64,000 nucleotides of DNA from a bacterium (GTDB lineage: Bacteria > Patescibacteriota > Minisyncoccia > Moranbacterales > UBA2206), in the NCBI GenBank assembly GCA_043725085.1, contig JAYSLY010000007.1:1471-65470 (forward strand), given 5' to 3'. The translations under genes and the position numbers were made by a program. The notes beneath the pieces were generated by a model, which saw nothing but the letters and a program-made list of their open reading frames with translations, searched no databases and was not told where the DNA came from. Positions 1 through 11,966 of the stretch are shown piece after piece (position 1 is the first letter of the stretch; each line of letters starts with the position of its first letter).

Positions 1-262
1 GTTTTTTCTGCAAATACTTCGCCAGCTCCTCATAATTTAAGCCCATTCTAATCGCATCAAAATCCAAATCTTCCGAAAACCGCTCAATGCCATAGGCAAA
101 GCGCAAACAAGTTCCGCCCAAAAACGCCAAGTGATTGCCATATTTGGAAGTATAGAGAATTTCCAAAATTTCTGATTGCAAATATTCCACCAAACAACGT
201 CTGGGATTATTGGGAATATTATTTCTTTTAATATAATCTTCCAAGAAATTTTTATCGAGCAT
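1..262 (-). CDS. AbiEii/AbiGii-family nucleotidyltransferase toxin, N-terminal part (gene runs off window start)
   Basis: Reverse strand from ATG (rc of cat at 260-262) reads MLDKNFLEDYIKRNNIP...HLAFLGGTCLRFAYGIERFSEDLDFD, the DUF1814/AbiEii N-terminal signature. Overlaps the upstream AbiEi gene by 11 nt. Confidence 0.65.
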   Translation of the reverse strand, partial: MLDKNFLEDYIKRNNIPNNPRRCLVEYLQSEILEILYTSKYGNHLAFLGGTCLRFAYGIERFSEDLDFDAIRMGLNYEELAKYLQKK

Positions 263-872
263 TTTTTTGATAGGCTAGCAAGCTTTCAATCAGCTTGGTC
301 ACTTTTTTGTCATTAAATAATTTTTTATACTCCCCAATTTTTTTCAAATCAAATTCAAACTCCTCATCAATCCGCAACTCCCGCCAAAAATTCTCCTGCG
401 CCACCAGCTTGTTTTTGTTGAGATAGAGATAATCCAAAATCGCCTTTTCCGGCGTGGCAATGTAAAAAGTCACATTTCTATCTTTTTGCATAACATACCC
501 GAAAAACAGACTACTTTTAATTTTTTGATAAGTAAAATTACCGAATTCATTTTCATAGGTAATGGTTTTTCTTGAAGTAACGGAAGTATAGGTGCCGGGA
601 ATATCGGGAATAATGCCATAATAGTTCAAAGCAAATTCCAAGCTCAAATAGGCCGGTGCATAGATTTTGGAAGCTAGTGACAATAAATTAATGTCATTTT
701 GAGCATTAGTCAAAAGATAGAGGCCTTTTCTAATTTTTTTGATATAGCCTTTCTTGGTCCAAAAAGCGATCTGAACAAGAATATTAGGCTCGGCAAAAAA
801 GATGTTTTTTGCTTCAATTGAGCTAAAAACAGGAAACCTAAGCATTTTTTTTTCGAACTCAAAAAATCGCAT
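252..872 (-). CDS. AbiEi-family type IV antitoxin (wHTH regulator)
   Basis: 206 aa. Contains ...KKGYIKKIRKGLYLL... and APAYLSLEFALNYYGIIPD, typical of AbiEi_4 antitoxins. Sits directly upstream of the AbiEii gene with overlap. Paralog of 10005-10577. Confidence 0.65.
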   Translation of the reverse strand: MRFFEFEKKMLRFPVFSSIEAKNIFFAEPNILVQIAFWTKKGYIKKIRKGLYLLTNAQNDINLLSLASKIYAPAYLSLEFALNYYGIIPDIPGTYTSVTSRKTITYENEFGNFTYQKIKSSLFFGYVMQKDRNVTFYIATPEKAILDYLYLNKNKLVAQENFWRELRIDEEFEFDLKKIGEYKKLFNDKKVTKLIESLLAYQKNAR

Positions 873-992
873 AGTTGTTTCTTTATATTAACATATATAA
901 TAATATCAAGAAACTTATATTTTGTCAACCCATTAACGTAATTCACCTATTTTGATGAATTATGTCATCAAATACAAAGCATGATAAAAAAA

Positions 993-1718
993 TTATTTTT
1001 TCTCCAACTCCACACTAATCCGCTTGGCGATAACTTCGCCGGCGTTGTTAGTGTAATTTCCCTCTTGAGAGATGTCTCGAAAGCCTAAGTTTTGGACAAT
1101 TTTGTGCGACGGCTTATCTTTTGGCACGTGCGCAATCAGCTTTTTGGCGCCAGAATTAATTTCTTCCGCCGTCACTTCTTGAAGAAAATTTTCTCCCACA
1201 TAGAATTTTTGGAGCAGCGGATCAATATTCATCGCGCCAAGATAGCGCTCGCCTTCCGACAAGGCCGCTCGCCCGTCAAATGTCGACGAGCGCACAAACC
1301 CGACCAGACTTCCGAGTGTTTTTTGCGACGCGCTGACATTTTCTTGGTCGAAATAGAGCAGATGAAATTTGGGATCATACGCTAGGTGTTTTTCAAAATC
1401 ACCGAGCAATCGCGCCAGATCTTCTTTAGATTTGTGCGCGTTAGCCGCCGCATACATCTCACGCAGTTTTTCTGTCAACGCCGAATCTTTTTTCAATTCT
1501 TCTTTTCCGACAGTCGTCAATTCCACACCCCCAATTTCTTCCAATTCTTGGACTTCACCGGCTTTTTTCGCCGCCACCAATAGCGAAGCCACCAAATCAA
1601 TTTCCGTGTGGCTCTTTTCCAAGTCAGTGAGAAGTTTTTGAATTTTATCTTCACTGGCTCGATCACCACTTTTCAACTCCGCGCTGAAATTGACAATAAT
1701 CTGATGTGCCCGCCGCAA
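993..1718 (-). CDS. hypothetical protein (241 aa) inside the TA islet
   Basis: Long ORF with coding-like composition. No motif recognised by eye. Confidence 0.45.
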   Translation of the reverse strand: MRRAHQIIVNFSAELKSGDRASEDKIQKLLTDLEKSHTEIDLVASLLVAAKKAGEVQELEEIGGVELTTVGKEELKKDSALTEKLREMYAAANAHKSKEDLARLLGDFEKHLAYDPKFHLLYFDQENVSASQKTLGSLVGFVRSSTFDGRAALSEGERYLGAMNIDPLLQKFYVGENFLQEVTAEEINSGAKKLIAHVPKDKPSHKIVQNLGFRDISQEGNYTNNAGEVIAKRISVELEKK

Positions 1719-1850
1719 TAGTTCCGTCCCTCCTGCCCGACTTATGCTTCGGGTCCGAGCGATTTTTGACCAGTATCATTGCTCGTAATGATTGACTGGC
1801 CGGAAAACTATTCCCAATGGACGAAGCGCTGATCCTTGGGGGTGATTTTT

Positions 1851-1869
1851 AATTCAACCGAAACAAAAG
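1851..1869. repeat. left arm of a 19-bp perfect inverted repeat flanking the MNT/HepT cassette
   Basis: aattcaaccgaaacaaaag. The exact reverse complement is at 2558-2576. Confidence 0.8.
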
Positions 1870-1921
1870 AAAAGCTATTTGGAAATTTGCTCTATAGGCA
1901 AATTTTTGCTATATTGAACTT

Positions 1922-2230
1922 ATGGATAAACTACTTGAAATCGAACAAAAACTAGTGGAAGCCATCCATAATGACCCGCACCGAGAAGATATGAAAAAAG
2001 TCTCTCTGTTCGGCTCCTATGTTTATGGCCAACCACGGGAAGATTCCGATGTGGATGTTTTGGTTGAATTTGAACCAAATGCGTCCATCGGGCTTTTTGA
2101 GTTTGTCAGAATTCAAAGAAGATTTTCCGAGTTTTCCGGAAAAAAAATTGACCTGCTCACGCCTTCCGCTCTGAGCAAATATTTTCGTGATGAAGTTCTT
2201 GCTAACGCCAAAACTATCTATGAAAAATGA
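1922..2230 (+). CDS. MNT-type minimal nucleotidyltransferase antitoxin
   Basis: 102 aa. LFGSYVYGQPREDSDVDVLVEF matches the GS...D.D nucleotidyltransferase motif. TTGCTC-17-TATATT promoter-like sequence at about 1885-1913. Confidence 0.75.
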   Translation: MDKLLEIEQKLVEAIHNDPHREDMKKVSLFGSYVYGQPREDSDVDVLVEFEPNASIGLFEFVRIQRRFSEFSGKKIDLLTPSALSKYFRDEVLANAKTIYEK

Positions 2231-2552
2231 CCAAGCTTTTCTCAAACATATTTAAGAATCCATCGAAGCCATAAATGAATCGCTTATTGGAATTTCTTAT
2301 GCGGAATTTTTAGAAAACAAACTACTCCTGAAAGCAATCGTGCGCGACTTGGAAATTATCGGCGAAGCGGCAAATAAAATCAGTTTGGAATTGCGCAACC
2401 TAAACCCGCAAATTCCTTGGCGAGATATGATTGATATGCGCAATGTCCTGATTCACGAATATTTTGGCGTCATTCCGGAAACAGTTTGGAAAACCTGTCA
2501 ACAAAATCTGCCTAAACTTAAGGAAGAAATTGACTTATTGCTCAGGCAATAA
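2220..2552 (+). pseudogene. HepT (DUF86/HEPN) toxin interrupted by an in-frame TAA at 2253-2255
   Basis: Frame from ATG 2220 reads MKNDQAFLKHI*ESIEAINESLIGISYAEFLENKLLLKAIVRDLEIIGEAANK...RNVLIHEY (Rx4HxY HEPN motif). The stop sits where Leu is expected (LKHI-L-ESIE), so a TTA to TAA change would account for it. The start overlaps the MNT stop by 11 nt. The ORF track shows only the GTG restart fragment 2340-2552. Confidence 0.6.
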
Positions 2553-2557
2553 TCCCC

Positions 2558-2576
2558 CTTTTGTTTCGGTTGAATT
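2558..2576. repeat. right arm of the 19-bp inverted repeat
   Basis: cttttgtttcggttgaatt is the exact reverse complement of 1851-1869. Confidence 0.8.
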
Positions 2577-2578
2577 GA

Positions 2579-2608
2579 CACTCGACTTTTTCAGTCGGGT
2601 GTTTTTTA
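2579..2608 (+). terminator. rho-independent terminator after HepT
   Basis: cactcgact-ttttc-agtcgggtg (9-bp stem, one mismatch) followed by tttttt. Confidence 0.55.
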
Positions 2609-3037
2609 ATTCCTATTTAATTGTCAATGAACTTTTTTGTGAATTAGCTCTTCTTTTCTAATTCACAAAAATGCCAGTGATACGGAGCATTCATGATGAA
2701 AGCTCCTTTTGATTTCCGAAGAAGAGAGATTTTGACGAAAAATCAACTTTTTTCTTATCACTAGCATTTTTCTAAAGATGATTGTTTTGAAATCATATTT
2801 AGCTCTCTTCTTCGACCACTGGAGCTTTCCGGTGATTTATCTTGACTGCGTAGTATATCATAATTTCACAGTTTTGTCTATATATCTTGTGCCATTTCTA
2901 GTGACATTGTCGTAAAACTCTTCAATTAAAACACTCTTTTGGCTTATATTCACTTGCATATTGTCATAATTAAAATTGACAATTATCTTATGGCGTGCTA
3001 GAATTAGGATATAAAACCTCTAAAAAACCAAAAAAAT

Positions 3038-3556
3038 ATGCCAAAAAATGAAAAACAAGCGCTAATTCCCGATGAGCGCATTATGAGCCGGATCTACTTT
3101 ATCCGCGGGGAAAAGGTAATGTTTGACCGAGATTTAGCCGAGCTTTATGGCGTGGAAACCAGAATACTTAAACAAGCAGTAAAAAGAAATTTGGACCGAT
3201 TTCCTTCAGATTTTATGTTTCAGCTGAATAAAAAAGAGCTTGAAATTTGGAGATCACAAATTGTGATGTCCAAAAGTGATAAGCAAGGATTGAGATGGCT
3301 ACCAATTGTTTTCACCGAACAAGGTGTCGCAATGCTTTCCGCTGTGCTCAAAAGCAAACGTGCTGTGGCAGTGAGCATTCAAATCGTGCGCACATTCGTG
3401 AAATTGCGCGAAATTTTGTCCACCCACACGAAACTACGCGAAAAAGTGGAACTGATGGAAGATAAATATGACAAGAGTTTCAAGGTGGTCTTTCAAATGA
3501 TCGCCAGACTGATGAAAGAAGACGCCCAGCCAAAAAAGCGCATTGGATTTTATTAG
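3038..3556 (+). CDS. ORF6N-domain protein (KilA-N-like, phage/defence-associated)
   Basis: SRIYFIRGEKVMFDRDLAELYGVETRILKQAVKRNLDRFPSDFMFQL is the characteristic ORF6N N-terminal block. Confidence 0.65.
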   Translation: MPKNEKQALIPDERIMSRIYFIRGEKVMFDRDLAELYGVETRILKQAVKRNLDRFPSDFMFQLNKKELEIWRSQIVMSKSDKQGLRWLPIVFTEQGVAMLSAVLKSKRAVAVSIQIVRTFVKLREILSTHTKLREKVELMEDKYDKSFKVVFQMIARLMKEDAQPKKRIGFY

Positions 3557-3563
3557 AACCCTT

Positions 3564-3598
3564 GGAGGCTCAACCTCCATAATGGAGGTTGAGCCTCC
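3564..3598 (+). terminator. perfect 17-bp palindrome 8 nt after the ORF6N stop (terminator or protein-binding site)
   Basis: ggaggctcaacctccat-a-atggaggttgagcctcc. Confidence 0.4.
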
Positions 3599-3625
3599 TT
3601 AAATAATTAGTTTTATACATTTACA

Positions 3626-4393
3626 ATGTTTATAGATCAGCTCCAAAAATTCGGCCTCACAAAAACCCAATCTGCTGTGCTGGATTGTCTGTTTGAACAT
3701 GGAGAAACCAAGGCCAGTGATGTGGCGAAAATCGCCAATCACCCTCGTGGAGTGGCCTACAAGGCTCTCGAGGAACTTCTAGCGTTTAACTTGGTGGAAA
3801 AAATCGAGAAAGAAAAAGAAGTGGCCAAATGGCGCGCCACCCATCCGCGTAATCTGGAAAAAATTTTGGAAAATAAAGAAGCCGAGCTCAGTCAAAACAA
3901 AAAAACGTTTGAAGACACGTTGCCCAGTCTCATTTCCAGCTACAACATTACACTCAATAAACCGGGCGTGAAATTCTATGAAGGCGCGGACGGAATGGAA
4001 AAAATTTTGGATGACACACTCAAAAGCCAAACGGAAATCTTGCTCTTCATCAACACCAATTCACTTGAAGCGGAGAGCTCCTTCAAGGAAATCAATGCGG
4101 AGTATAAGCGCAAGAGAAAATTCAAGGGTTTGAGAAAAAGAATTATCCGCACGGGAAAAAAGCCGGAAATAACTTTCGGAATATCTGATGATAAATATGA
4201 CGCGGTGACGGAAATCCGTTATTTGGAAAAAAATCTTTCCGCTTTCAAATCCAGCGTGCAAATTTATGACGGAAAAATTTCCTACCAAATTTTTGACCAA
4301 GGCAATGTCATTTCCATTCTGATTGAGGACAAAAATATCTATGAAATGAACAAGGCTTGGTTTGAGACGCTTTGGGAAATGGCGACTACATAA
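3626..4393 (+). CDS. TrmB-family HTH transcriptional regulator
   Basis: N-terminal LTKTQSAVLDCLFEHGETKASDVAKIANHPRGVAYKALEELL winged-HTH. C-terminal ...WFETLWEMA. Paralog of 8533-9267. Confidence 0.55.
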   Translation: MFIDQLQKFGLTKTQSAVLDCLFEHGETKASDVAKIANHPRGVAYKALEELLAFNLVEKIEKEKEVAKWRATHPRNLEKILENKEAELSQNKKTFEDTLPSLISSYNITLNKPGVKFYEGADGMEKILDDTLKSQTEILLFINTNSLEAESSFKEINAEYKRKRKFKGLRKRIIRTGKKPEITFGISDDKYDAVTEIRYLEKNLSAFKSSVQIYDGKISYQIFDQGNVISILIEDKNIYEMNKAWFETLWEMATT

Positions 4394-4443
4394 TTCTCTT
4401 TTTGTGCTATAATTAGCCTAATTTAAACCTTAAGTCAAACTTT

Positions 4444-7170
4444 ATGCCAGACACCAAGACCCAAAAACTAATTCTCATCGACGGCAATGCGATTATTCAT
4501 CGTTCCTATCACGCTCTCCCGCCGTTCACGACCAAAAAAGGCGAGCTGGTCAACGCTGTCTATGGCTTTGCTTCAACGGTGATTTCAATCATTGCCAAGT
4601 TTGAACCGGAATATATTATTGCAACTTTTGATCTCGCCGGGCCGACATTTCGTCATTTGGATTATGCCCAGTATAAGGCGACACGCGTCAAAGCCGATGA
4701 TGCGCTCTATGCGCAGATTCCTCGCGTCAAAGAAGTGGTGCGCGCTTTTGGTATTCCGATTTGCGAGGCCTCCGGTTTTGAAGCGGACGATGTGATTGGC
4801 ACGCTCGTCAAGAAAGTGGAAGAAAATAATCCTGAGTTGGAAATTATTATTGTAACGGGCGACATGGACACCTTGCAATTGGTGAGCGAAAAAACGAAAG
4901 TCTACACAATGCGCCGAGGGCTCACCGATTCCGCGCTCTATGGCAAAGCGGAAATATTTGAACGCTATTCGCTCGCACCGGAACAATTGATTGATTATAA
5001 GGGTCTGCGCGGTGATCCGTCGGACAACATTCCCGGCGTGAAAGGAATTGGCGAGAAAACCGCGATTGAACTTCTCAAAACCTATGGCACATTGGAAAAT
5101 GTTTATGCCCATTTAGGTGAGATTAAAAAAACATTGCAAGAAAAATTAGAGCACGATCGGATGATGGCTAAAAAAAGCAAAGAGCTCGCCACCATCTCGC
5201 GTGAGGCGCCGGTGGAGCTGGAGCTGGAAAAAGCCGTCACAAAAGATTATGACAAGCCAACACTTTTGGCTCTTTTTGACGAATTAAATTTCCACTCTCT
5301 CAAAAGAAGATTAGGACAGACGGAAAAAAATAATAGTGATCGCGATAAAAAAAATACTCCCAAAATTGATTCTGATGGGGTGAAAGATTTTAAATTTGAA
5401 ATTGCCGATGAAAAAAACAGTACGGAAATTTTGGAAGCAATTTCTGCGTCAAATGAAATTGCCATCAAATTGAAAACAGCCGGTGAGGCTAAGGAAAACA
5501 TAACGCTCCTTGGCGTGGCAGTTGCCTATAAAACCGGTCGCGTCGCCTATTTCGACCGCAATGACGCCGTTTTTGCCAAGCTAAAAACCATCCTGGAAGA
5601 TTCGCGAATTGCAAAGATCGGCTATGATTTGAAAAGTGATTTGAAAATTCTGTGGAAAAATGAAATAAATTTGACTGGCACATGTTTTGATATTCTCATT
5701 AGCAGCTATCTTTTGAACCCCGGTCGAAAAACCACCCTCCCTGAATTAGTCGCAGAATATCTAAACGAGGAACTTGCCGACGAGGCAAGAAAAGGTCAGT
5801 TGGGATTGGAAATTGAATCACTCGAAGAGATGGTTCAAAAAATTTCCGCCGTAGCTGACTATATTTTCAAACTGAAAAAAATCCACCAAACAGAAATCGA
5901 AAAAATCAGCGAAGCACAAATCAGGAATAATAATGAAAGCAAAAACACGCTTCGAGAGGTTTTTGCCAAACTGGAAATGCCGCTTGTGCCGGTCCTTGCC
6001 AAAATGGAAACTTTTGGAATCAAACTTGATACATTGATTTTCAGAGGAATTTCCAAAACGATCAGCGAACGAATTAAAAAACTAGAACAATCAATTTATA
6101 GCCTAAGCGGAGAAACTTTTAACATTGCCTCGCCCAAGCAACTGGCTAAAGTTTTGTTTGAAAAAATGCACATTCCCTCTGATGGAATTAAAAAAGGCAA
6201 GTCCGGCGTCATCTCCACCGCCTCAGCTGAGCTTGAAAAATTGAAAAATGAACACAAAATCGTGGAAAAAATTGAAGAGTTTCGCGAAATAACCAAGTTG
6301 AAAAATACCTATCTCGACACATTGCCGGAAATGGTCGACAAAGATTCTCGCCTCCACACCACGTTTAATCAAGCTATCGCTGCCACCGGCCGCCTTTCTT
6401 CATCTGATCCGAATTTGCAAAATATTCCCATTCGCACGGAACTCGGCCAACTCCTCCGTGTGGCTTTTGTCGCGCGTGGCGGCTGGAAACTGGTCAGCGC
6501 CGATTATTCCCAAATTGATTTGCGTGTCGTCGCTCATGTCAGTGGCGACAAAAAAATGATTGAACTGTTTGGCGCCGGCGAAGACATTCATCGCGCCACC
6601 GCCGCGGAGATTAACAAAATTCCCCTCTCGCAAGTTTCGCAAAAAATCCGGCGCACCGCCAAAGAACTCAATTTTGGCGTGATCTATGGCATGGGCACAT
6701 TCGGTTTTGCCTCACGCACCGGCATCTCCAGAGAAGACGCCAAAAAATTCATCGATGCCTATTTTGAACGCTTTCAAGGCGTGGCGAGCTATATGCAAAA
6801 AACCAAAGAATTTGCCAGAGAAAAAGGCTACGTCGAAACGGAAATCGGACGGCGAAGATATATCCCGGAAATTAATTCGCCCAATTTTCAAGTGCAAAGC
6901 GGCGCCGAACGAATGGCAATCAATATGCCGATTCAAGGTTTGTCATCAGACATCATGAAAATTGCCATGCTGCGAATCGACGAAGCGTTTGGAGCCGACT
7001 CGGAAGTGAAGATGCTCCTTCAAATCCATGACGAGATCATTTTGGAAGTCAAAGAAGAGCGCGCGAAAGTTGTGGCCGAAAAAATTAAAACCATTCTTGA
7101 GGATGCCTACACTTTGCGCGTCCCACTCGTCGCCAATGTGGAAATTGGAGATAATTGGGGGGAGATTTAG
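4444..7170 (+). CDS. polA: DNA polymerase I
   Basis: 908 aa. 5'-3' exonuclease N-terminus. Polymerase motifs RRTAKELNFGVIYGMGTFGFA and QIHDEIILEV. The central 3'-5' exo-like region lacks the canonical acidic motifs. Confidence 0.9.
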   Translation: MPDTKTQKLILIDGNAIIHRSYHALPPFTTKKGELVNAVYGFASTVISIIAKFEPEYIIATFDLAGPTFRHLDYAQYKATRVKADDALYAQIPRVKEVVRAFGIPICEASGFEADDVIGTLVKKVEENNPELEIIIVTGDMDTLQLVSEKTKVYTMRRGLTDSALYGKAEIFERYSLAPEQLIDYKGLRGDPSDNIPGVKGIGEKTAIELLKTYGTLENVYAHLGEIKKTLQEKLEHDRMMAKKSKELATISREAPVELELEKAVTKDYDKPTLLALFDELNFHSLKRRLGQTEKNNSDRDKKNTPKIDSDGVKDFKFEIADEKNSTEILEAISASNEIAIKLKTAGEAKENITLLGVAVAYKTGRVAYFDRNDAVFAKLKTILEDSRIAKIGYDLKSDLKILWKNEINLTGTCFDILISSYLLNPGRKTTLPELVAEYLNEELADEARKGQLGLEIESLEEMVQKISAVADYIFKLKKIHQTEIEKISEAQIRNNNESKNTLREVFAKLEMPLVPVLAKMETFGIKLDTLIFRGISKTISERIKKLEQSIYSLSGETFNIASPKQLAKVLFEKMHIPSDGIKKGKSGVISTASAELEKLKNEHKIVEKIEEFREITKLKNTYLDTLPEMVDKDSRLHTTFNQAIAATGRLSSSDPNLQNIPIRTELGQLLRVAFVARGGWKLVSADYSQIDLRVVAHVSGDKKMIELFGAGEDIHRATAAEINKIPLSQVSQKIRRTAKELNFGVIYGMGTFGFASRTGISREDAKKFIDAYFERFQGVASYMQKTKEFAREKGYVETEIGRRRYIPEINSPNFQVQSGAERMAINMPIQGLSSDIMKIAMLRIDEAFGADSEVKMLLQIHDEIILEVKEERAKVVAEKIKTILEDAYTLRVPLVANVEIGDNWGEI

Positions 7171-7196
7171 ATCTGTAAAAAAATAGTCATAGAAAA

Positions 7197-7233
7197 AAGG
7201 AGTTGTCGCATTGGACAGCTCCTTTTGAATTTT
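7197..7233 (+). terminator. rho-independent terminator after polA
   Basis: aaggagttgtc-gcattg-gacagctcctt (11-bp stem with a G-U pair) followed by ttgaatttt. Confidence 0.6.
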
Positions 7234-7251
7234 CCTACAAAAGAACTATTT

Positions 7252-7288
7252 GAGAGATAATCTTCCTCAAGGATTATCTCTTTTTATA
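7252..7288. terminator. second hairpin (10-bp stem) with T-tract, between the convergent polA and 7300 genes
   Basis: gagagataatc-ttcctcaag-gattatctct followed by ttttat. Confidence 0.45.
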
Positions 7289-7299
7289 TTGTCAACATT

Positions 7300-7599
7300 T
7301 TATCCTTCAAATTTTATTCCAAGATGAAAGATTCCCGCTTTTCCTGATTTTTGTTTTTCTATAAAAGTCACATAACCTTTCTTGATTTCATAGTTCCCCT
7401 TGGAAAGATTTACATTCTTTTTTAGAAAATAGAAGTGTCCCTCGTTTTTTTCGCAATATAATGATACTGATGGTTCTCTTGAATAGCCATCTTCAGAAAA
7501 TGGTTCAAAGCCGCCGAGCGCTTGCATAATAAAATGCGGTAAATGGCAAAATTGGGTAAATTGCCAATTTTCGGTAGCTGAACCAAAACTGATCCACAT
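7300..7599 (-). CDS. hypothetical protein (99 aa); may be the 3' part of a frameshifted gene that starts at 7769
   Basis: Overlaps 7422-7769 by 178 nt in another frame. Its sequence (WQFTQFCHLPHFIMQALGGFEPFSEDGY...) looks more globular than the overlapping tail. Confidence 0.35.
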   Translation of the reverse strand: MWISFGSATENWQFTQFCHLPHFIMQALGGFEPFSEDGYSREPSVSLYCEKNEGHFYFLKKNVNLSKGNYEIKKGYVTFIEKQKSGKAGIFHLGIKFEG

Positions 7600-7769
7600 A
7601 GAGATCCGTCATCCCCGATTTCAAGCTGACCAATTGCAGGATTGTCAAGATAAGCACAGGACAAAGTACCACAGACTTCGCTTTTATAAAAATCGGTTAG
7701 GGTAGTTCCCACAAAGCCGCTCAGATCAGCTGTTTGAAACACCACTCTTATCAAGTTGATTATTTTCAT
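7422..7769 (-). CDS. small hypothetical protein downstream of conserved 32-nt leader, copy 1 (possibly frameshifted into 7300-7599)
   Basis: aaggaga RBS then ATG at 7769. MKIINLIRVVFQTADLSGFVG... Confidence 0.4.
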   Translation of the reverse strand: MKIINLIRVVFQTADLSGFVGTTLTDFYKSEVCGTLSCAYLDNPAIGQLEIGDDGSLCGSVLVQLPKIGNLPNFAIYRILLCKRSAALNHFLKMAIQENHQYHYIAKKTRDTSIF

Positions 7770-7802
7770 ATCATTTCTCCTTTTTCAAAGTACCGTTTTT
7801 TT

Positions 7803-7834
7803 GTCTCCCCGAGAAACCGTTTTCTCAGCTTGAC
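7803..7834 (-). promoter_or_regulatory. conserved 32-nt leader/operator motif, copy 1
   Basis: Minus-strand reading: GTCAAGCTGAGAAAACGGTTTCTCGGGGAGAC. Contains the near-palindrome GAGAAAACGGTTTCTC. Identical to 8365-8396. Lies about 35 nt upstream of the ATG, followed by a shared cttt(g/a)aaaaaggagaa RBS region. Confidence 0.6.
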
Positions 7835-7938
7835 AATTTTTCCTCCATCTCAAGCCTCAAAACAATTCTGAAACTTGGGAAAAGGAGGCGAGCCGGATGC
7901 GATGATCATTGGTGGCTCGCCTTGAGACAAAGAATAAA

Positions 7939-8331
7939 TTAAGGAAAGATTTTGTACTTCTGATCAAACTTATGCGCAGCGTCAAGAAATCTTTTTTGTT
8001 CGCAGGATAATTCTTCATATCCAGAATCAAAGATTGATGATTTATCACGTTTTGTTTCTTCAAACCCCTTGAAATTAAAGGGATCCCCTTGCACTGTATA
8101 ACCTTCTTCTGTTATGACAAACATCCACAACGATTGAGATTTGTACAAAACACTGGATCCCGGGTCAAAAAGTTTAACTTTAACTTTTCGCCCTTCAGGA
8201 AGATCGTGATGTGAACCATTGGACACAAGCTCCTGACCCACAAATAATTCAAGTCCATTAAATCTTACTTTTAATAGACCGAAGCCTTCCTTTGACCTTT
8301 CGATTTCTTCAAAAGTATTTATTTCTTTCAT
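7939..8331 (-). CDS. small hypothetical protein (130 aa) downstream of conserved leader, copy 2
   Basis: aaaggagaa RBS then ATG at 8331. MKEINTFEEIERSKEGFGLLKV... No recognised domain. Confidence 0.5.
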   Translation of the reverse strand: MKEINTFEEIERSKEGFGLLKVRFNGLELFVGQELVSNGSHHDLPEGRKVKVKLFDPGSSVLYKSQSLWMFVITEEGYTVQGDPFNFKGFEETKRDKSSIFDSGYEELSCEQKRFLDAAHKFDQKYKIFP

Positions 8332-8364
8332 TTTCTATTCTCCTTTTTAAAGAACATTGTTTTC

Positions 8365-8396
8365 GTCTCCCCGAGAAACCGTTTTCTCAGCTTGAC
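8365..8396 (-). promoter_or_regulatory. conserved 32-nt leader/operator motif, copy 2
   Basis: Identical 32-mer to 7803-7834. Sits in the divergent region shared with the TrmB-like gene at 8533. Confidence 0.6.
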
Positions 8397-8449
8397 CCAA
8401 GAGTATAGCAGGTAAATTGTGTTTTGTCAACAGCAATCTTACGACAATA

Positions 8450-8478
8450 TTGACATCAGTCGAAAACTGCGCTATAAT
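8450..8478 (+). promoter_or_regulatory. sigma70-like promoter for the TrmB-like gene
   Basis: TTGACA (8450-8455), 17-nt spacer, TATAAT (8473-8478). Confidence 0.5.
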
Positions 8479-8532
8479 AGAGCCATAATAGTGGCTTTTA
8501 TCTACGATCGTAAGCCATAAACTGACAAAAAT

Positions 8533-9267
8533 ATGGAGCAAGAATTATCCCAACTCGGCCTCACACCCAACGAAATCAAGGTTTATCTCGTACTTTTGGA
8601 ATTGGGCGAAAATACGGTGGGACCACTGATCAAGAAACTCGGGATGCACCGCCAAGTCGCCTATGATGCGCTCGAAGGCCTCAAAGAGAGAAATATGGTG
8701 CTTAGTTCCACCAAAAACAACCGCCTGATCTTTCGCATCGCCAACCCGCAAAATATCCTGGACAATATTGAACAACAAAAAATGGTGGCCAATAATCTGA
8801 TGGGTGAAATCAATGACCGCTTGGCCGGACAGAAAAAGGGCCAAGAAATCCGGGTCTATGAAGGCGAAAAAGCCTATCGTGATTTCATCCGCCGGAGAAA
8901 TGACTTGCAACCGCCCAATACGACATACATGGTTATGAGCGGAATGAGTTTGATATATAAAGATATGATGACCAAAGGCAGAATCTATGAACGGATCAAT
9001 CGCATTCGCAAAAAAAACAATATCAACACAAAAATTTTGATGAATGACGCCCATAGAAATGAAGCGGAAAAACTTCAGCGCGTCAACTCAGAGATTCGCT
9101 TTCTGCCGGAAGGCTTCAATTCCCCCACTTCATTTGACATCTGGCATGATTCCATCTCGCTCATCTCACACGCCAACGGCGTCTTCTGCATCGAGATCAA
9201 GAACGACGATTTTCACCGGTCCTATTTGACCTATTTTGAGTTGCTTTGGCAGATGGCGAAAAAATAG
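8533..9267 (+). CDS. TrmB-family HTH transcriptional regulator
   Basis: LTPNEIKVYLVLLELGENTVGPLIKKLGMHRQVAYDALEGL wHTH. Ends ...YFELLWQMAKK. Its last 49 nt are duplicated at 10599-10647. Confidence 0.55.
   Translation: MEQELSQLGLTPNEIKVYLVLLELGENTVGPLIKKLGMHRQVAYDALEGLKERNMVLSSTKNNRLIFRIANPQNILDNIEQQKMVANNLMGEINDRLAGQKKGQEIRVYEGEKAYRDFIRRRNDLQPPNTTYMVMSGMSLIYKDMMTKGRIYERINRIRKKNNINTKILMNDAHRNEAEKLQRVNSEIRFLPEGFNSPTSFDIWHDSISLISHANGVFCIEIKNDDFHRSYLTYFELLWQMAKK
9219..9267 (+). repeat. direct repeat DR1 (49 bp), which is the 3' end of the TrmB-like gene
   Basis: gtcctatttgacctattttgagttgctttggcagatggcgaaaaaatag. Repeated with one mismatch at 10599-10647. Confidence 0.8.
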
Positions 9268-9337
9268 AGTTGACAACTTCCCTATTATATGATACGCTAT
9301 TATTATCAAATATGTTAATAATTAAGTATCATTAAAT

Positions 9338-10033
9338 ATGAACGAAACTCAACTAACCAACTACATCAAAGAATTCGGCATCGCGCGCGACCAGATTTTG
9401 CGCGAAGAAGCGGAGATGGAAATTTTATCCGAACTTTCCAAAAGCAAATTAAGCGCGAACTTGGTTTTTTATGGCGGAACGGCTTTGCGATTAGCTTATG
9501 GCTCCCCGCGCTTTTCCGAAGACCTTGATTTATTGGTGATAAAAAAAATTAGTTTTGCCGAATTTAAAAACTTTACCGCAAGTTTAATTAAAAATCACAC
9601 AAATTGGACACTGAAAGATCTCAAAGATAAGCGCCGGATGATATTCGCTCTGGTTAGTATTAATGATGAAAAATTAAAGCATGCGTTTTCCGTCAAAATC
9701 GAAGTACACAAGCCTGAGCGCAAACCAAAATTAGAAACTGAACTAGCACTCGTCAAAAGCCCACTAAGCATCGCCGAGCCATTACTTTTAGTTCCAACAC
9801 TTACGGAACTAAAACGACTGAAAGAATCTGCCTTGGCCGGAAGAAAAAAAGGTCGCGATATTTTTGACCTTTGGTATATCGCCAAAGCTCTGCGTGAAAA
9901 TTTCATTCTGCCAAAAAATTTACCAAAATATGGAAAAAAAGAATTTCAAAATGAACTGCAAGTATTTTTGCCAAAAAAATACTACCCGGTCATAACTCAA
10001 CTCTATGAACAATTTGGAAATAAAACTAAATAG
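9338..10033 (+). CDS. AbiEii/AbiGii-family nucleotidyltransferase toxin
   Basis: 231 aa. LVFYGGTALRLAYGSPRFSEDLDLLV nucleotidyltransferase signature. Confidence 0.7.
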   Translation: MNETQLTNYIKEFGIARDQILREEAEMEILSELSKSKLSANLVFYGGTALRLAYGSPRFSEDLDLLVIKKISFAEFKNFTASLIKNHTNWTLKDLKDKRRMIFALVSINDEKLKHAFSVKIEVHKPERKPKLETELALVKSPLSIAEPLLLVPTLTELKRLKESALAGRKKGRDIFDLWYIAKALRENFILPKNLPKYGKKEFQNELQVFLPKKYYPVITQLYEQFGNKTK

Positions 10034-10577
10034 AATCCCTAAAAGCTATTTTTCTTTTGCCGATGCCAGAAAAGTCGCCCGGTTGGATGATGCAAGTCTC
10101 CGTGTGGCAATCAGCCGCTTAGTTAAGGCTGGAAAAATAATCTCGCTAACCAAGGGCTATTATTGCCAAGATTTGGCCAAGCTAGATTTTCCCAGGCTAG
10201 CGCTGGAAATTTATGCGCCAAGTTATTTGTCCTTTGAATGGGTGCTTGGGCAAACCGGTATTTTGAGCCAAAAATCCTATGCCTTGACACTTGCAACCGC
10301 AAAACGCGCTCGTCAAATTGAAATCGCCGGCACAACTTTGATCTATCGCCATTTGCAAACAGATTTATTTTTTGGATATGAAATCAAAGATGGCTACCTA
10401 ATTGCGCAGCCGGAAAAAGCTTTTTTAGATCTCGCCTATCTGTCTCTCAACGGCTACGCGAAATTTGATGCGGAAGAAATGAACTTGACGCTACTTGATG
10501 AAAATAAAATAAAAAACTACTTGAAAAAGTTTGGGAGTAAACGATTGAATACATTGATAAACAACTTATTTGCATAG
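10005..10577 (+). CDS. AbiEi-family antitoxin, placed after the toxin (inverted order)
   Basis: 190 aa. LRVAISRLVKAGKIISLTKGYYC and LEIYAPSYLSFEWVLGQTGIL mirror 252-872. Overlaps AbiEii by 29 nt. Confidence 0.65.
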   Translation: MNNLEIKLNRIPKSYFSFADARKVARLDDASLRVAISRLVKAGKIISLTKGYYCQDLAKLDFPRLALEIYAPSYLSFEWVLGQTGILSQKSYALTLATAKRARQIEIAGTTLIYRHLQTDLFFGYEIKDGYLIAQPEKAFLDLAYLSLNGYAKFDAEEMNLTLLDENKIKNYLKKFGSKRLNTLINNLFA

Positions 10578-10598
10578 AAAAAACGCAAACTTTCGTAA

Positions 10599-10647
10599 GT
10601 CCTATCTGACCTATTTTGAGTTGCTTTGGCAGATGGCGAAAAAATAG
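10599..10647 (+). repeat. direct repeat DR2 (49 bp)
   Basis: gtcctatctgacctattttgagttgctttggcagatggcgaaaaaatag. One T/C mismatch versus DR1. Confidence 0.8.
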
Positions 10648-10783
10648 CTTTCAAACTAAACCTCGCTAATCACATCAAAGCCCTTGAAACTACCGGTAAT
10701 GGCCAGCCGATTACTTTTTTTGCCAAACCTCTTTCTTTAATCTTTCTGGCAATTTGGCAAGCCCCCCCCTGAATATCATCAAG

Positions 10784-10856
10784 TTGACAGTTTACTGTCA
10801 ACTGTCAACCAAATAGCAAGTATTGACAGGTGAGTCCTCACCAGTCAAGACTCACC
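10784..10856. promoter_or_regulatory. cluster of TTGACAG/CTGTCAA inverted repeats and a GGTGAGTC...GACTCACC palindrome about 150 bp upstream of mutM
   Basis: TTGACAGTttACTGTCAA CTGTCAA ... TTGACAGGTGAGTCctcaccagtcaaGACTCACC. Confidence 0.4.
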
Positions 10857-10985
10857 TCCACAATCCCGCCAACCCAATACATCAAACAAATATTCAACTG
10901 TCGACAAATTGTAAATAAAAGAAATAATAGTGCGAAAATTCTGTTTTTATGCTAGTCTTTTAAAAGCATTAACTTCATAAATATC

Positions 10986-11858
10986 ATGCCCGAACTACCC
11001 GAAGTCGAAACTATTGTCAGTGATTTGAACCGAAAAATCAAAGGCGCGCGCATTCTTTCTTTTTGGTCTGATTTTCCCAAAGCGATCAAAGGCATGGCAC
11101 TTCCGAAATTCAAGCGTGAAATGCAAGACAAAAAAATTATTCGCGCCGAGCGGGTGGGGAAAAATATTTTTCTCCATCTTTCCGGCGAAAAATCTTTGCA
11201 CATTCATTTGCGGATGACGGGGCATTTACTCATCAAAAAACAAGATACAAGATACAAAAAGCAAACAAAGGAAAATACAACTTTTTTTAACGAGAAAGTT
11301 AATCAATATATTCACCATGTTTGGCAATTGGATAAAGATCGCACTTTGGAATTTTCTGATTTGCGAAAGTTTGCAACGATGTGGCTAATGGATACTAAAA
11401 ATATTTCCGCCTATCTTGTTGACAAAAAAATCGGCATCGACGCGATGGATGAGAAGTTTACTTTGATCAAATTCAATGATTTACTTGACCTGAAGCCGGC
11501 CATGCCGATTGGCATATTCCTCCTTGATCAAAGCCTGATTTCGGGCATCGGCAACATCTATCGCAGTGAAATTTTATTTTCCGCCGGAGTTTTGCCTGAA
11601 CGCAAAAATGAAAGTCTCGACAAAAACGAACGCAAAAAAAATTTTCGTGAAATGAGAAGGATTCTAAAACTGGCCATCAAAATGCGCGGAACATCCGACA
11701 GCGATTACCGTGACTCAGCTGGCGCGCCGGGACATTTTCAAGAAGTTTTGAAAGTTTATCGTAAAACCGGAGCGCCTTGCCCAGATTGTTTTGGAAAAGT
11801 TCAGAGAAAAACTATGGCACAACGCAGTGTGTTTTTTTGCCCGAAGTGTCAGAAATAG
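10986..11858 (+). CDS. mutM: formamidopyrimidine-DNA glycosylase
   Basis: N-terminal MPELPEVE. C-terminal zinc finger CPDCFGKV...FFCPKCQK. Confidence 0.85.
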   Translation: MPELPEVETIVSDLNRKIKGARILSFWSDFPKAIKGMALPKFKREMQDKKIIRAERVGKNIFLHLSGEKSLHIHLRMTGHLLIKKQDTRYKKQTKENTTFFNEKVNQYIHHVWQLDKDRTLEFSDLRKFATMWLMDTKNISAYLVDKKIGIDAMDEKFTLIKFNDLLDLKPAMPIGIFLLDQSLISGIGNIYRSEILFSAGVLPERKNESLDKNERKKNFREMRRILKLAIKMRGTSDSDYRDSAGAPGHFQEVLKVYRKTGAPCPDCFGKVQRKTMAQRSVFFCPKCQK

Positions 11859-11966
11859 CCCCTTTTAGGAACATTCGGGAAATACAATATGGTCCTAATG
11901 TAATTAATTTAGATTATTTTTAGTAGTTCTATTCAATAGCATAAAAAGCTTTCGAGAAAAATAAGA

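Follow-up and report, generated by a model that had tools for sequence, protein, structure and literature searches.

We have analyzed a pair of AbiE toxin–antitoxin genes in a 64-kilobase (kb) stretch of bacterial DNA (contig JAYSLY010000007.1; the whole stretch is called the window below). The pair, in which the gene for the toxin AbiEii precedes that for the antitoxin AbiEi, lies directly behind the gene of a TrmB-like regulator, TrmB1. Homologues of TrmB1 and the names of their sources place the window in the Parcubacteria/Moranbacteria, within the candidate phyla radiation (CPR). The AbiE pair is a discrete, horizontally mobile unit, and it is bracketed by two copies of the 3′ end of the TrmB1 gene, the second of which is a mosaic of foreign and resident sequence. 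Duplications of this kind recur around related cassettes at unrelated target genes. The reading that we favor, with a probability of roughly 0.55, is that the cassette was inserted by recombination in the manner of a Campbell-type insertion-duplication, and not by transposition.

The cassette and the two copies of the TrmB1 gene end

The TrmB1 gene (positions 8533–9267, plus strand) is intact. It encodes 244 amino acids and carries a winged helix matching Pfam PF01978 (E = 6e-13). Orthologues that are 62–91% identical occur in Parcubacteria and Moranbacteria, and are syntenic in three of the loci fetched for comparison (L001, L003 and L013). A scan of genome contigs with TrmB1 gave distant relatives only, at 23–37% identity. 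The toxin gene (9338–10033) and the antitoxin gene (10005–10577) follow on the same strand.

The last 49 nucleotides (nt) of TrmB1 (9219–9267) are found again beyond the pair, at 10599–10647. The copies agree at 48 of 49 positions, the sole mismatch being T9226 versus C10606, and their starts are 1380 nt apart. A sequence-only reading of this DNA had described the 49-nt repeat of the TrmB-like gene end with its one mismatch, and in this it was exact. When up to three mismatches were tolerated, a search with the 48-mer located exactly two copies in the window; shuffling the sequence 100 times produced none. Since there are only two copies in the window and none is expected in shuffled sequence, the repeat is real and is not a dispersed element of the repetitive extragenic palindromic (REP) type, an alternative that the sequence-only reading had itself raised.

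Weak similarity extends 21 nt further upstream, to 9199 and 10579 (69 nt, 86%), and the extended repeat is in frame, reading KNDDFHRSYLTYFELLWQMAKK versus KNANFRKSYLTYFELLWQMAKK, each closed by a stop. The left copy (9198–9267, plus strand, with its near-identical core at 9219–9267) is the genuine TrmB1 3′ end including the stop codon. The right copy is an orphan TrmB1-type 3′ fragment of 70 nt (10578–10647, plus strand) that begins 1 nt past the AbiEi stop. The differences between the two are not evenly spread, with 9 mismatches in the first 21 nt versus 1 in the remaining 49 (Fisher p = 3.7e-5). When the register is counted from the stop codon, positions −70 to −50 of the orphan match L013 at 17 of 21 positions and L001 and L003 at 15, versus 11 for the resident TrmB1 (12 of 21 in an alternative alignment register). 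By chance, a 21-nt segment would reach 15 or more matches at a rate of 1.3e-4, and 16 or more at a rate of 3e-5. In blastn comparisons, 10578–10647 matches the 3′ end of the TrmB1 gene in L001 (85.7% across 70 nt), in L003 and in L015. The last 41 nt are identical in both copies, and the codons GAG and CAG that they have in common are absent from six orthologues.

Because its upstream 21 nt are nearer to the TrmB genes of other lineages than to the resident gene, the orphan has a history different from that of the left copy, and the two are not an evenly decayed duplicate pair. The orphan is a chimera with foreign TrmB1 sequence at its 5′ side (10578–10606), resident-type sequence at its 3′ side (10607–10647, identical to the resident gene end) and a breakpoint near 10606. 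The sequence-only reading had taken the repeat for a scar resembling a target duplication, which does not agree with a 70-nt mosaic TrmB fragment whose mismatches are divided 9/21 and 1/49.

A further short motif may mark the right-hand joint. The heptamer TTTGCAT lies in the last AbiEi codons (10569–10575, plus strand) and recurs in TrmB1 orthologues immediately 5′ of the segment that is duplicated (TTTTGCATCGA, FCIEI codons); it is a candidate microhomology, and a speculative one. The blastn alignments of the orphan region to L003 and L015 reach back to 10569 and 10554, respectively. The 10-mer AAATAGCTTT, which in the window (10641–10650) spans the end of the orphan tail and the DNA beyond it, occurs 3′ of the AbiEi stop in L013 (6241–6260), where it may remain from a right-hand repeat that has since been lost, or be due to chance.

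The cassette itself runs from 9270 to 10577, that is, from the −35 box of its promoter to the AbiEi stop. By blastn, similarity to L015 and L032 starts exactly at 9270, and L013 remains similar up to 10580, which is 3 nt beyond the stop codon of AbiEi. Beyond these limits nothing is common among the fetched loci, and the cassette ends carry no inverted repeats. The left junction is nearly equal in the window and L013, consisting of the stop codon, 0–2 nt and then TTGACAACTTC. Cassettes are located after TrmB1 (window, L013), directly after PolA (L015), beside an apurinic/apyrimidinic (AP) endonuclease gene (L017), between a DedA/VTT gene and glyS (L020–L029) and inside a liv ABC-transporter operon (L037–L046), and are absent from the TrmB1 neighborhood in L001, L002 and L003. 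The toxin and antitoxin are 83–86% identical to those of L013 and L015, and the flanking PolA, Fpg and TrmB1 are 65–76% identical. Positions 1–21000 of the window yielded no gene for an integrase, a transposase or a tRNA.

Two details of these other settings may be added. In the L037-type loci, from a groundwater lineage, the cassette (e.g., L037 1598–2844) lies between the binding-protein and permease genes and ends 6 nt before the permease start. TrmB-like genes are found 1–2 kb from the cassette on the opposite strand in L017 (3323–4129 and 7141–7869), L030 (1346–2116 and 5875–6615) and L032 (1248–2060); this proximity may reflect the structure of the islands, or merely the abundance of the regulator family in the CPR.

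In eight contexts, the sequence that follows the cassette was compared with the 800 nt that precede it. Direct target duplications flank the cassette in three of them: 49–70 nt of the TrmB1 3′ end in the window, 128 nt at 80% identity in L017/L018, belonging to the 3′ part of a convergent gene for AP endonuclease, and 84–99 nt comprising the glyS leader and its first ~9 codons in L020–L029. In L017 the functional gene now stops inside cassette sequence, and the orphan left copy retains the original stop. The L020-type structure is present in at least eight independent assemblies and the L017 type in two. In L017 and L020, 0–4 nt separate the AbiEi stop from the start of the right copy; the corresponding distance in the window is 1 nt for the 70-nt fragment and 21 nt for the 49-nt core. 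The left copy ends 2–45 nt before the −35 box. By comparison, 338 control positions of equal size were taken from the window and from eleven loci, and only 1 of them was flanked by a repeat at E ≤ 1e-8. The association of the cassette with flanking duplications is real.

The mechanism of insertion

How did the cassette come to stand between two copies of a gene end? In the reading that we favor, a segment of ~1.38 kb would have been cut from a donor that already had the cassette behind its TrmB1 gene, as L013 has. The segment would carry the donor's last ~70–79 nt of TrmB1 together with the cassette, and would close into a 1380-nt circle, perhaps by illegitimate joining at the TTTGCAT present at both ends. 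One homologous crossover with the resident TrmB1, somewhere in its final ~41 nt, would then insert the circle, so that an undamaged TrmB1 is followed by the cassette and by an orphan tail of TrmB1 whose 5′ part is of donor type. We infer both the circular intermediate and its use of host homologous recombination, perhaps after DNA uptake. The variable length of the repeats, the unrelated targets, the internal gene fragment of L017, the donor-type arm, and the lack of a recombinase gene and of terminal repeats all argue against a transposase or a single site-specific system, and they fit the pattern of single-crossover insertion-duplication by a small circle that has taken up the cassette and a piece of host gene. 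Taken together, explanations that invoke recombination are likely to be right.

A number of observations weigh against the Campbell-type reading. No empty site was recovered among the relatives; the sequence of L006 stops 27 nt past the TrmB1 stop, and the TrmB1 relative with the highest identity (91%) comes from a contig of 975 nt. A Campbell crossover between diverged sequences predicts differences on both sides, yet the last 41 nt are identical, which needs either a donor identical there or heteroduplex repair. The first arrival of a cassette at a new target such as glyS is left unexplained. The TTTGCAT microhomology fits only if a 4-nt gap is allowed, and is speculative. There is no flanking repeat at five of the eight contexts (L013, L015, L030, L032 and L037), L013 being at the same site, and three of eight is a small sample that may be unrepresentative. 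Finally, the excess of ~10 points in the identity of the cassette is moderate and may partly reflect purifying selection.

The mosaic repeat would also fit one-sided homologous recombination, in which a linear fragment acquired from a relative is anchored by homology in TrmB1 or fpg and an illegitimate joint is made at TTTGCAT. The orphan tail would be the recipient's old TrmB1 end or incoming DNA, and later gene conversion would give the 41 identical nt. The presence of TTTGCAT at the right-hand joint, the cargo that differs among relatives between conserved flanks, and the lack of a recombinase nearby are consistent with this. However, homology-facilitated illegitimate recombination typically produces deletions, not duplications; the conversion is an extra step, needed to place 41 identical nt beside 10 differences in 29 (the 9 in 21 nt plus C10606); and a repeat abutting both cassette ends in three unrelated targets is not naturally given. 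We consider this mechanism, which is defined in PMC3240628, to be the chief rival, possible while falling well short of even odds. Site-specific integration would make the TrmB1 3′ end an attB site, entered by a small integrase-less element (the cassette plus the foreign 21–29 nt) that was mobilized in trans and had the gene end copied into its attP. This would account for insertion at a gene 3′ end with the reading frame restored, for an identical core next to a foreign arm, and for the diverse cargo after the TrmB1 stop in L001, L002, L003 and L013, and a toxin-first AbiE pair on plasmid pADEG01 does adjoin a tyrosine recombinase gene. Nevertheless we find it unlikely: the window has no integrase in 1–21000, the targets duplicated by other copies are unrelated, being the 5′ end of glyS and an internal stretch of the AP-endonuclease gene, and the cassette ends have no conserved sequence beyond the promoter and the stop codon. 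The nucleotide conservation of the TrmB1 3′ end is only mildly raised, at 0.79 versus a gene average of 0.72, and on this ground the idea that it is a constrained att site was rejected.

Direct repeats here and in two other contexts, strongly enriched over the controls, are also what would be expected of a true target-site duplication, in which transposition-like staggered cuts ~49 nt apart are repaired by copying the TrmB1 end. Against this, the repeats measure 49–70, 84–99 and 128 nt, with no fixed stagger; the differences fall in blocks, with foreign TrmB sequence in the extra 21 nt; and there are neither terminal inverted repeats nor a transposase. Moreover L013, from the Moranbacteria, has the same TrmB–AbiEii–AbiEi arrangement with the same left junction and no repeat, an observation that goes against the scar proposed in the sequence-only reading by a criterion that this reading had itself set. 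A target-site duplication is thus very unlikely. Of the earlier proposal that a toxin–antitoxin module was inserted at the 3′ end of the regulator, what stands is a mobile unit bracketed by TrmB 3′-end sequence, and what falls is a simple duplication of the target. It is scarcely credible that the repeat is no insertion scar at all, being instead what is left of a TrmB2 gene after its deletion, or a dispersed repeat, or a chimera of metagenome assembly. Relatives (L002, L003, L013) do have a second TrmB-like gene between the cargo and fpg, and the window does come from a metagenome-assembled contig. Yet the fragment matches TrmB1 ends only and exists in just two copies in 64 kb; the stretch that the end of AbiEi has in common with TrmB1, at 7 nt, is not long enough to confuse an assembler; and analogous structures are found in at least eight (L020 type) and two (L017 type) independent assemblies. 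A TrmB2 stump was rejected as the source of the orphan, the 3′ end of TrmB2 in L013 being unrelated. Campbell-type insertion-duplication is the reading that we retain.

Both Campbell insertion-duplication and the gene-end copies (attL/attR) of genomic islands give what we observe here, i.e., direct repeats of the target, an intact target gene, donor-type sequence in one repeat, and a repeat length that is set by the fragment carried and is hence variable. Unlike these, the locus has no plasmid, phage, integrase or island; the insert is a promoter with two genes, and the circle is only proposed. Toxin–antitoxin cassettes of integrons are likewise small mobile units of one or two genes, often toxin–antitoxin genes, bounded by repeats. 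In their case the repeats are attC palindromes and an integron integrase is involved, whereas here the repeats are copied from the target gene at the site, the promoter belongs to the cassette itself, and there is no integron integrase. We found no description in the literature of insertion-duplication of toxin–antitoxin cassettes, or of insertion-duplication in Patescibacteria.

Identity, gene order and predicted regulation of the AbiE pair

The assignments of both proteins made in the sequence-only reading are confirmed by profile and fold comparisons. AbiEii, a DUF1814 nucleotidyltransferase of 231 amino acids, matches Pfam PF08843 (E = 2.9e-19; 70.4 bits versus a cut-off of 22.5) and the PADLOC AbiEii profile (4e-21), and has 4o8s and 4ok0 as relatives in the PDB. 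Its blocks GGT..R..SPRFSED and R.K.RD.FDLWY are invariant across 32 homologues. AbiEi, a two-domain winged-helix antitoxin and regulator of 190 amino acids, matches the PADLOC AbiEi profile at E = 6e-31 over residues 21–188, nearly its full length. It is below the curated cut-offs of Pfam AbiEi_4 (17.5 bits versus 25) and NCBIfam (24 bits versus 150). A sequence-profile search of the PDB gave no match for AbiEi, and the likeness came from structure comparison: the AlphaFold model has a predicted local distance difference test (pLDDT) score of 94, and Foldseek places AbiEi of Streptococcus agalactiae (6Y8Q; E = 4.7e-5) at rank 1 and Rv2827c (1ZEL) at rank 3.

As the sequence-only reading had stated, the toxin gene comes first and overlaps the antitoxin gene by 29 nt (10005–10033), in different frames. 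This order was seen in eight of eight independent contexts of relatives, spanning Moranbacteria, other Parcubacteria and groundwater lineages, in which AbiEii of ~231 amino acids is followed by AbiEi of 188–194 amino acids. The overlap is 20–29 nt in seven of the eight. The exception is L030, with a truncated AbiEi call of 163 amino acids that starts 49 nt past the AbiEii stop. A search with AbiEii returned 1490 homologues, with sources in several CPR groups. The RefSeq plasmid pADEG01 of Ammonifex degensii, a Firmicute in culture (L048, NC_013386.1 24630–26932), also has a toxin-first AbiE pair, with a 41-nt overlap; AbiE plasmids of Runella and Aliarcobacter have the canonical order, and viral contigs gave one distant AbiEii locus. 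On pADEG01 the pair is convergent and overlapping with the tyrosine recombinase gene, and a PIN/Phd pair adjoins. The conclusion that emerges is that the toxin-first order is a trait of a large CPR-wide subfamily and not a local inversion. The sequence-only reading had presented the order as inverted; as a local rearrangement this is not supported, the toxin being first in every context examined.

A second AbiE pair is present at the start of the window on the minus strand (2–872), where, as the sequence-only reading noted, the order is canonical. Its AbiEi gene occupies 872–252 (PADLOC, 3.7e-52), and its AbiEii gene is cut by the window edge, leaving the first 87 codons of the N-terminus (262–2; PF08843, 7e-11). 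The window, like L032, has both gene orders, and its two AbiEi proteins are 31% identical.

In the founding description of AbiE the regulator gene precedes the nucleotidyltransferase gene, and abiEi overlaps abiEii by 4 nt (PMC3985639). We found no paper that mentions the reversed order; a mycoplasma AbiE pair was considered as a precedent and rejected, its paper placing the antitoxin gene upstream. Since gene order, one defining feature of the described operon, differs here, the locus is on its sequence better described as a variant of AbiE with the toxin first than as an ordinary member of that system. It resembles AbiE of S. agalactiae and Lactococcus and the mycobacterial MenAT systems in its DUF1814 toxin with conserved catalytic blocks, in its two-domain antitoxin (a winged helix plus a C-terminal domain, with the 6Y8Q/1ZEL fold), and in having two overlapping genes behind one promoter with a long inverted repeat (PMC3985639). 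Unlike AbiE, it has the toxin before the antitoxin, an overlap of 29 rather than 4 nt and a short toxin (231 amino acids), and is known here from its sequence; its AbiEi is also unlike AbiE in falling under the Pfam and NCBIfam AbiEi cut-offs. The order toxin then antitoxin is familiar from higBA and hicAB, which belong to unrelated families. The mqsRA unit also has its toxin gene upstream of the antitoxin gene (PMC6918082), but its protein families are unrelated and its antitoxin has its own promoters inside the toxin gene.

A candidate promoter forms the left boundary of the cassette (9270–9298, plus strand). Its −35 box TTGACA (9270–9275) is located 2 nt past the TrmB1 stop, and is followed by a 17-nt spacer and an extended −10 element TG-n-TACGCT (9290–9298). 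TTGAC and the core ATGATAC are kept in 6–7 of seven loci, and the relatives have TACACT or TACAAT as −10 box. An imperfect palindrome with 26-nt arms (9283–9308 and 9313–9338, plus strand; 77% complementary, 4-nt center) spans the −10 box and the 5′ leader, and its arms are the best-conserved part of the seven-locus cassette alignment. In S. agalactiae, AbiEi represses the abiE promoter by binding its inverted repeats (PMC3985639), and we presume that the palindrome is the AbiEi operator. The L037-type promoter has a different palindrome (ATAGATG...CATCTAT). A consensus scan found no AbiEi-specific promoter inside the toxin gene.

These features lead to a predicted scheme of regulation. A single promoter (TTGACA, 17 nt, TGnTACNNT) would drive AbiEii and then AbiEi, and AbiEi would repress it through the 26-nt-arm palindrome over the −10 box. 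As the overlap of 29 nt is out of frame and AbiEi has no obvious ribosome-binding site, the arrangement suggests that translation of AbiEi is coupled to that of the toxin, tying the supply of antitoxin to that of toxin. AbiEii would act, as its homologues do, by nucleotidylating the 3′ ends of tRNAs and so blocking translation, and AbiEi would neutralize it by binding and by inducing its autophosphorylation. Such nucleotidylation of tRNA and the autophosphorylation that an antitoxin induces have both been described (bioRxiv 10.64898/2026.01.19.700257), this mode of neutralization being reported for S. agalactiae AbiE and proposed for MenAT. We infer the regulatory logic and the target of the toxin by analogy with these systems.

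The PolA–Fpg island and the significance of the locus

The site of insertion is a hypervariable island of toxin–antitoxin and defense-type genes. Relatives (PolA 72–79% identical) keep the frame PolA ... TrmB1 ... Fpg ... DUF3048, and the content between these genes varies. The arrangement consists of TrmB1, an unknown protein of 299 amino acids and Fpg in L001; of TrmB1, HD and Fic genes and a second TrmB in L002; of TrmB1, Bro-N and receiver-domain genes, a second TrmB and Fpg in L003; and of TrmB1, AbiEii, AbiEi, two small genes, a second TrmB and Fpg in L013. In L015, PolA is followed by AbiEii and AbiEi, and TrmB1 is 4 kb away.

The corresponding part of the window, from upstream of PolA to Fpg (1–11900), includes MNT–HepT, the two AbiE pairs, ORF6N/Bro-N, Fic, HD, DUF4143 ATPase and methyltransferase genes that vary between relatives. 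One or two TrmB-like genes recur as anchors beside the variable cargo; those of the window (3626–4393 and 8533–9267) are 27% identical. The MNT antitoxin gene (1922–2230) is intact, and HepT is seemingly frameshifted, with a C-terminal fragment of 70 amino acids (2340–2552) compared with 108–110 amino acids in L001 and L013. The 144-amino-acid genes of the window and L013 were considered as homologues, which would have implied a rearrangement; this was rejected, as they have no homology.

Several non-coding blocks (7835–7923, 7188–7285, 7775–7834 and 8314–8499) are 78–90% identical to L001–L006 and L013, exceeding the neighboring proteins, and some of them occur twice in L003 and L005. The block at 7835–7923, just downstream of a minus-strand gene for 130 amino acids, contains a CCTCC...GGAGG pairing and a GGCGAGC...GCTCGCC hairpin. 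It has no Rfam match and may be a terminator or a family of small RNA. The non-coding stretch between the orphan fragment and fpg (10648–10985) is probably the DNA that originally lay downstream of TrmB1. Its hairpin GGTGAGTCCTCACC..GTCAAGACTCACC (10829–10861) recurs in L015 (10286–10320), 13 nt past the TrmB1 stop, and a palindrome TTGACAGTTTACTGTCAACTGTCAA lies with the hairpin within 10785–10861, in the gap before fpg. A search of 7100–11100 against Rfam gave sub-threshold noise only, and no known RNA.

The locus is instructive, not extraordinary, and its local consequence is modest: TrmB1 is undamaged, and a variable island has gained a further cassette. The toxin-first subfamily of AbiE, with well over a thousand members, offers a natural contrast to the antitoxin-first systems, and allows a test of gene order and long overlap against toxin-to-antitoxin ratios. 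Annotation tools built on the antitoxin-first order may miss or mislabel such pairs, and the Pfam and NCBIfam models already fail on the antitoxin.

We may extend the argument beyond this locus to the proposal that enzyme-less AbiE cassettes spread in Patescibacteria by a regular route, as small circles of a cassette plus 50–130 nt of a host gene end that integrate beside gene ends by homologous recombination. We hold this general form to be doubtful. If true, it would describe a minimal mobile element that needs host recombination alone, perhaps tied to a lifestyle of DNA uptake; in a more radical version AbiEi or AbiEii itself may act in the insertion. Duplications of 49–128 nt round a cassette that has no recombinase, in 3 of 8 contexts versus 1 of 338 control positions, point to gene gain by recombination only, a route that is relevant to reduced genomes with few classical mobile elements.

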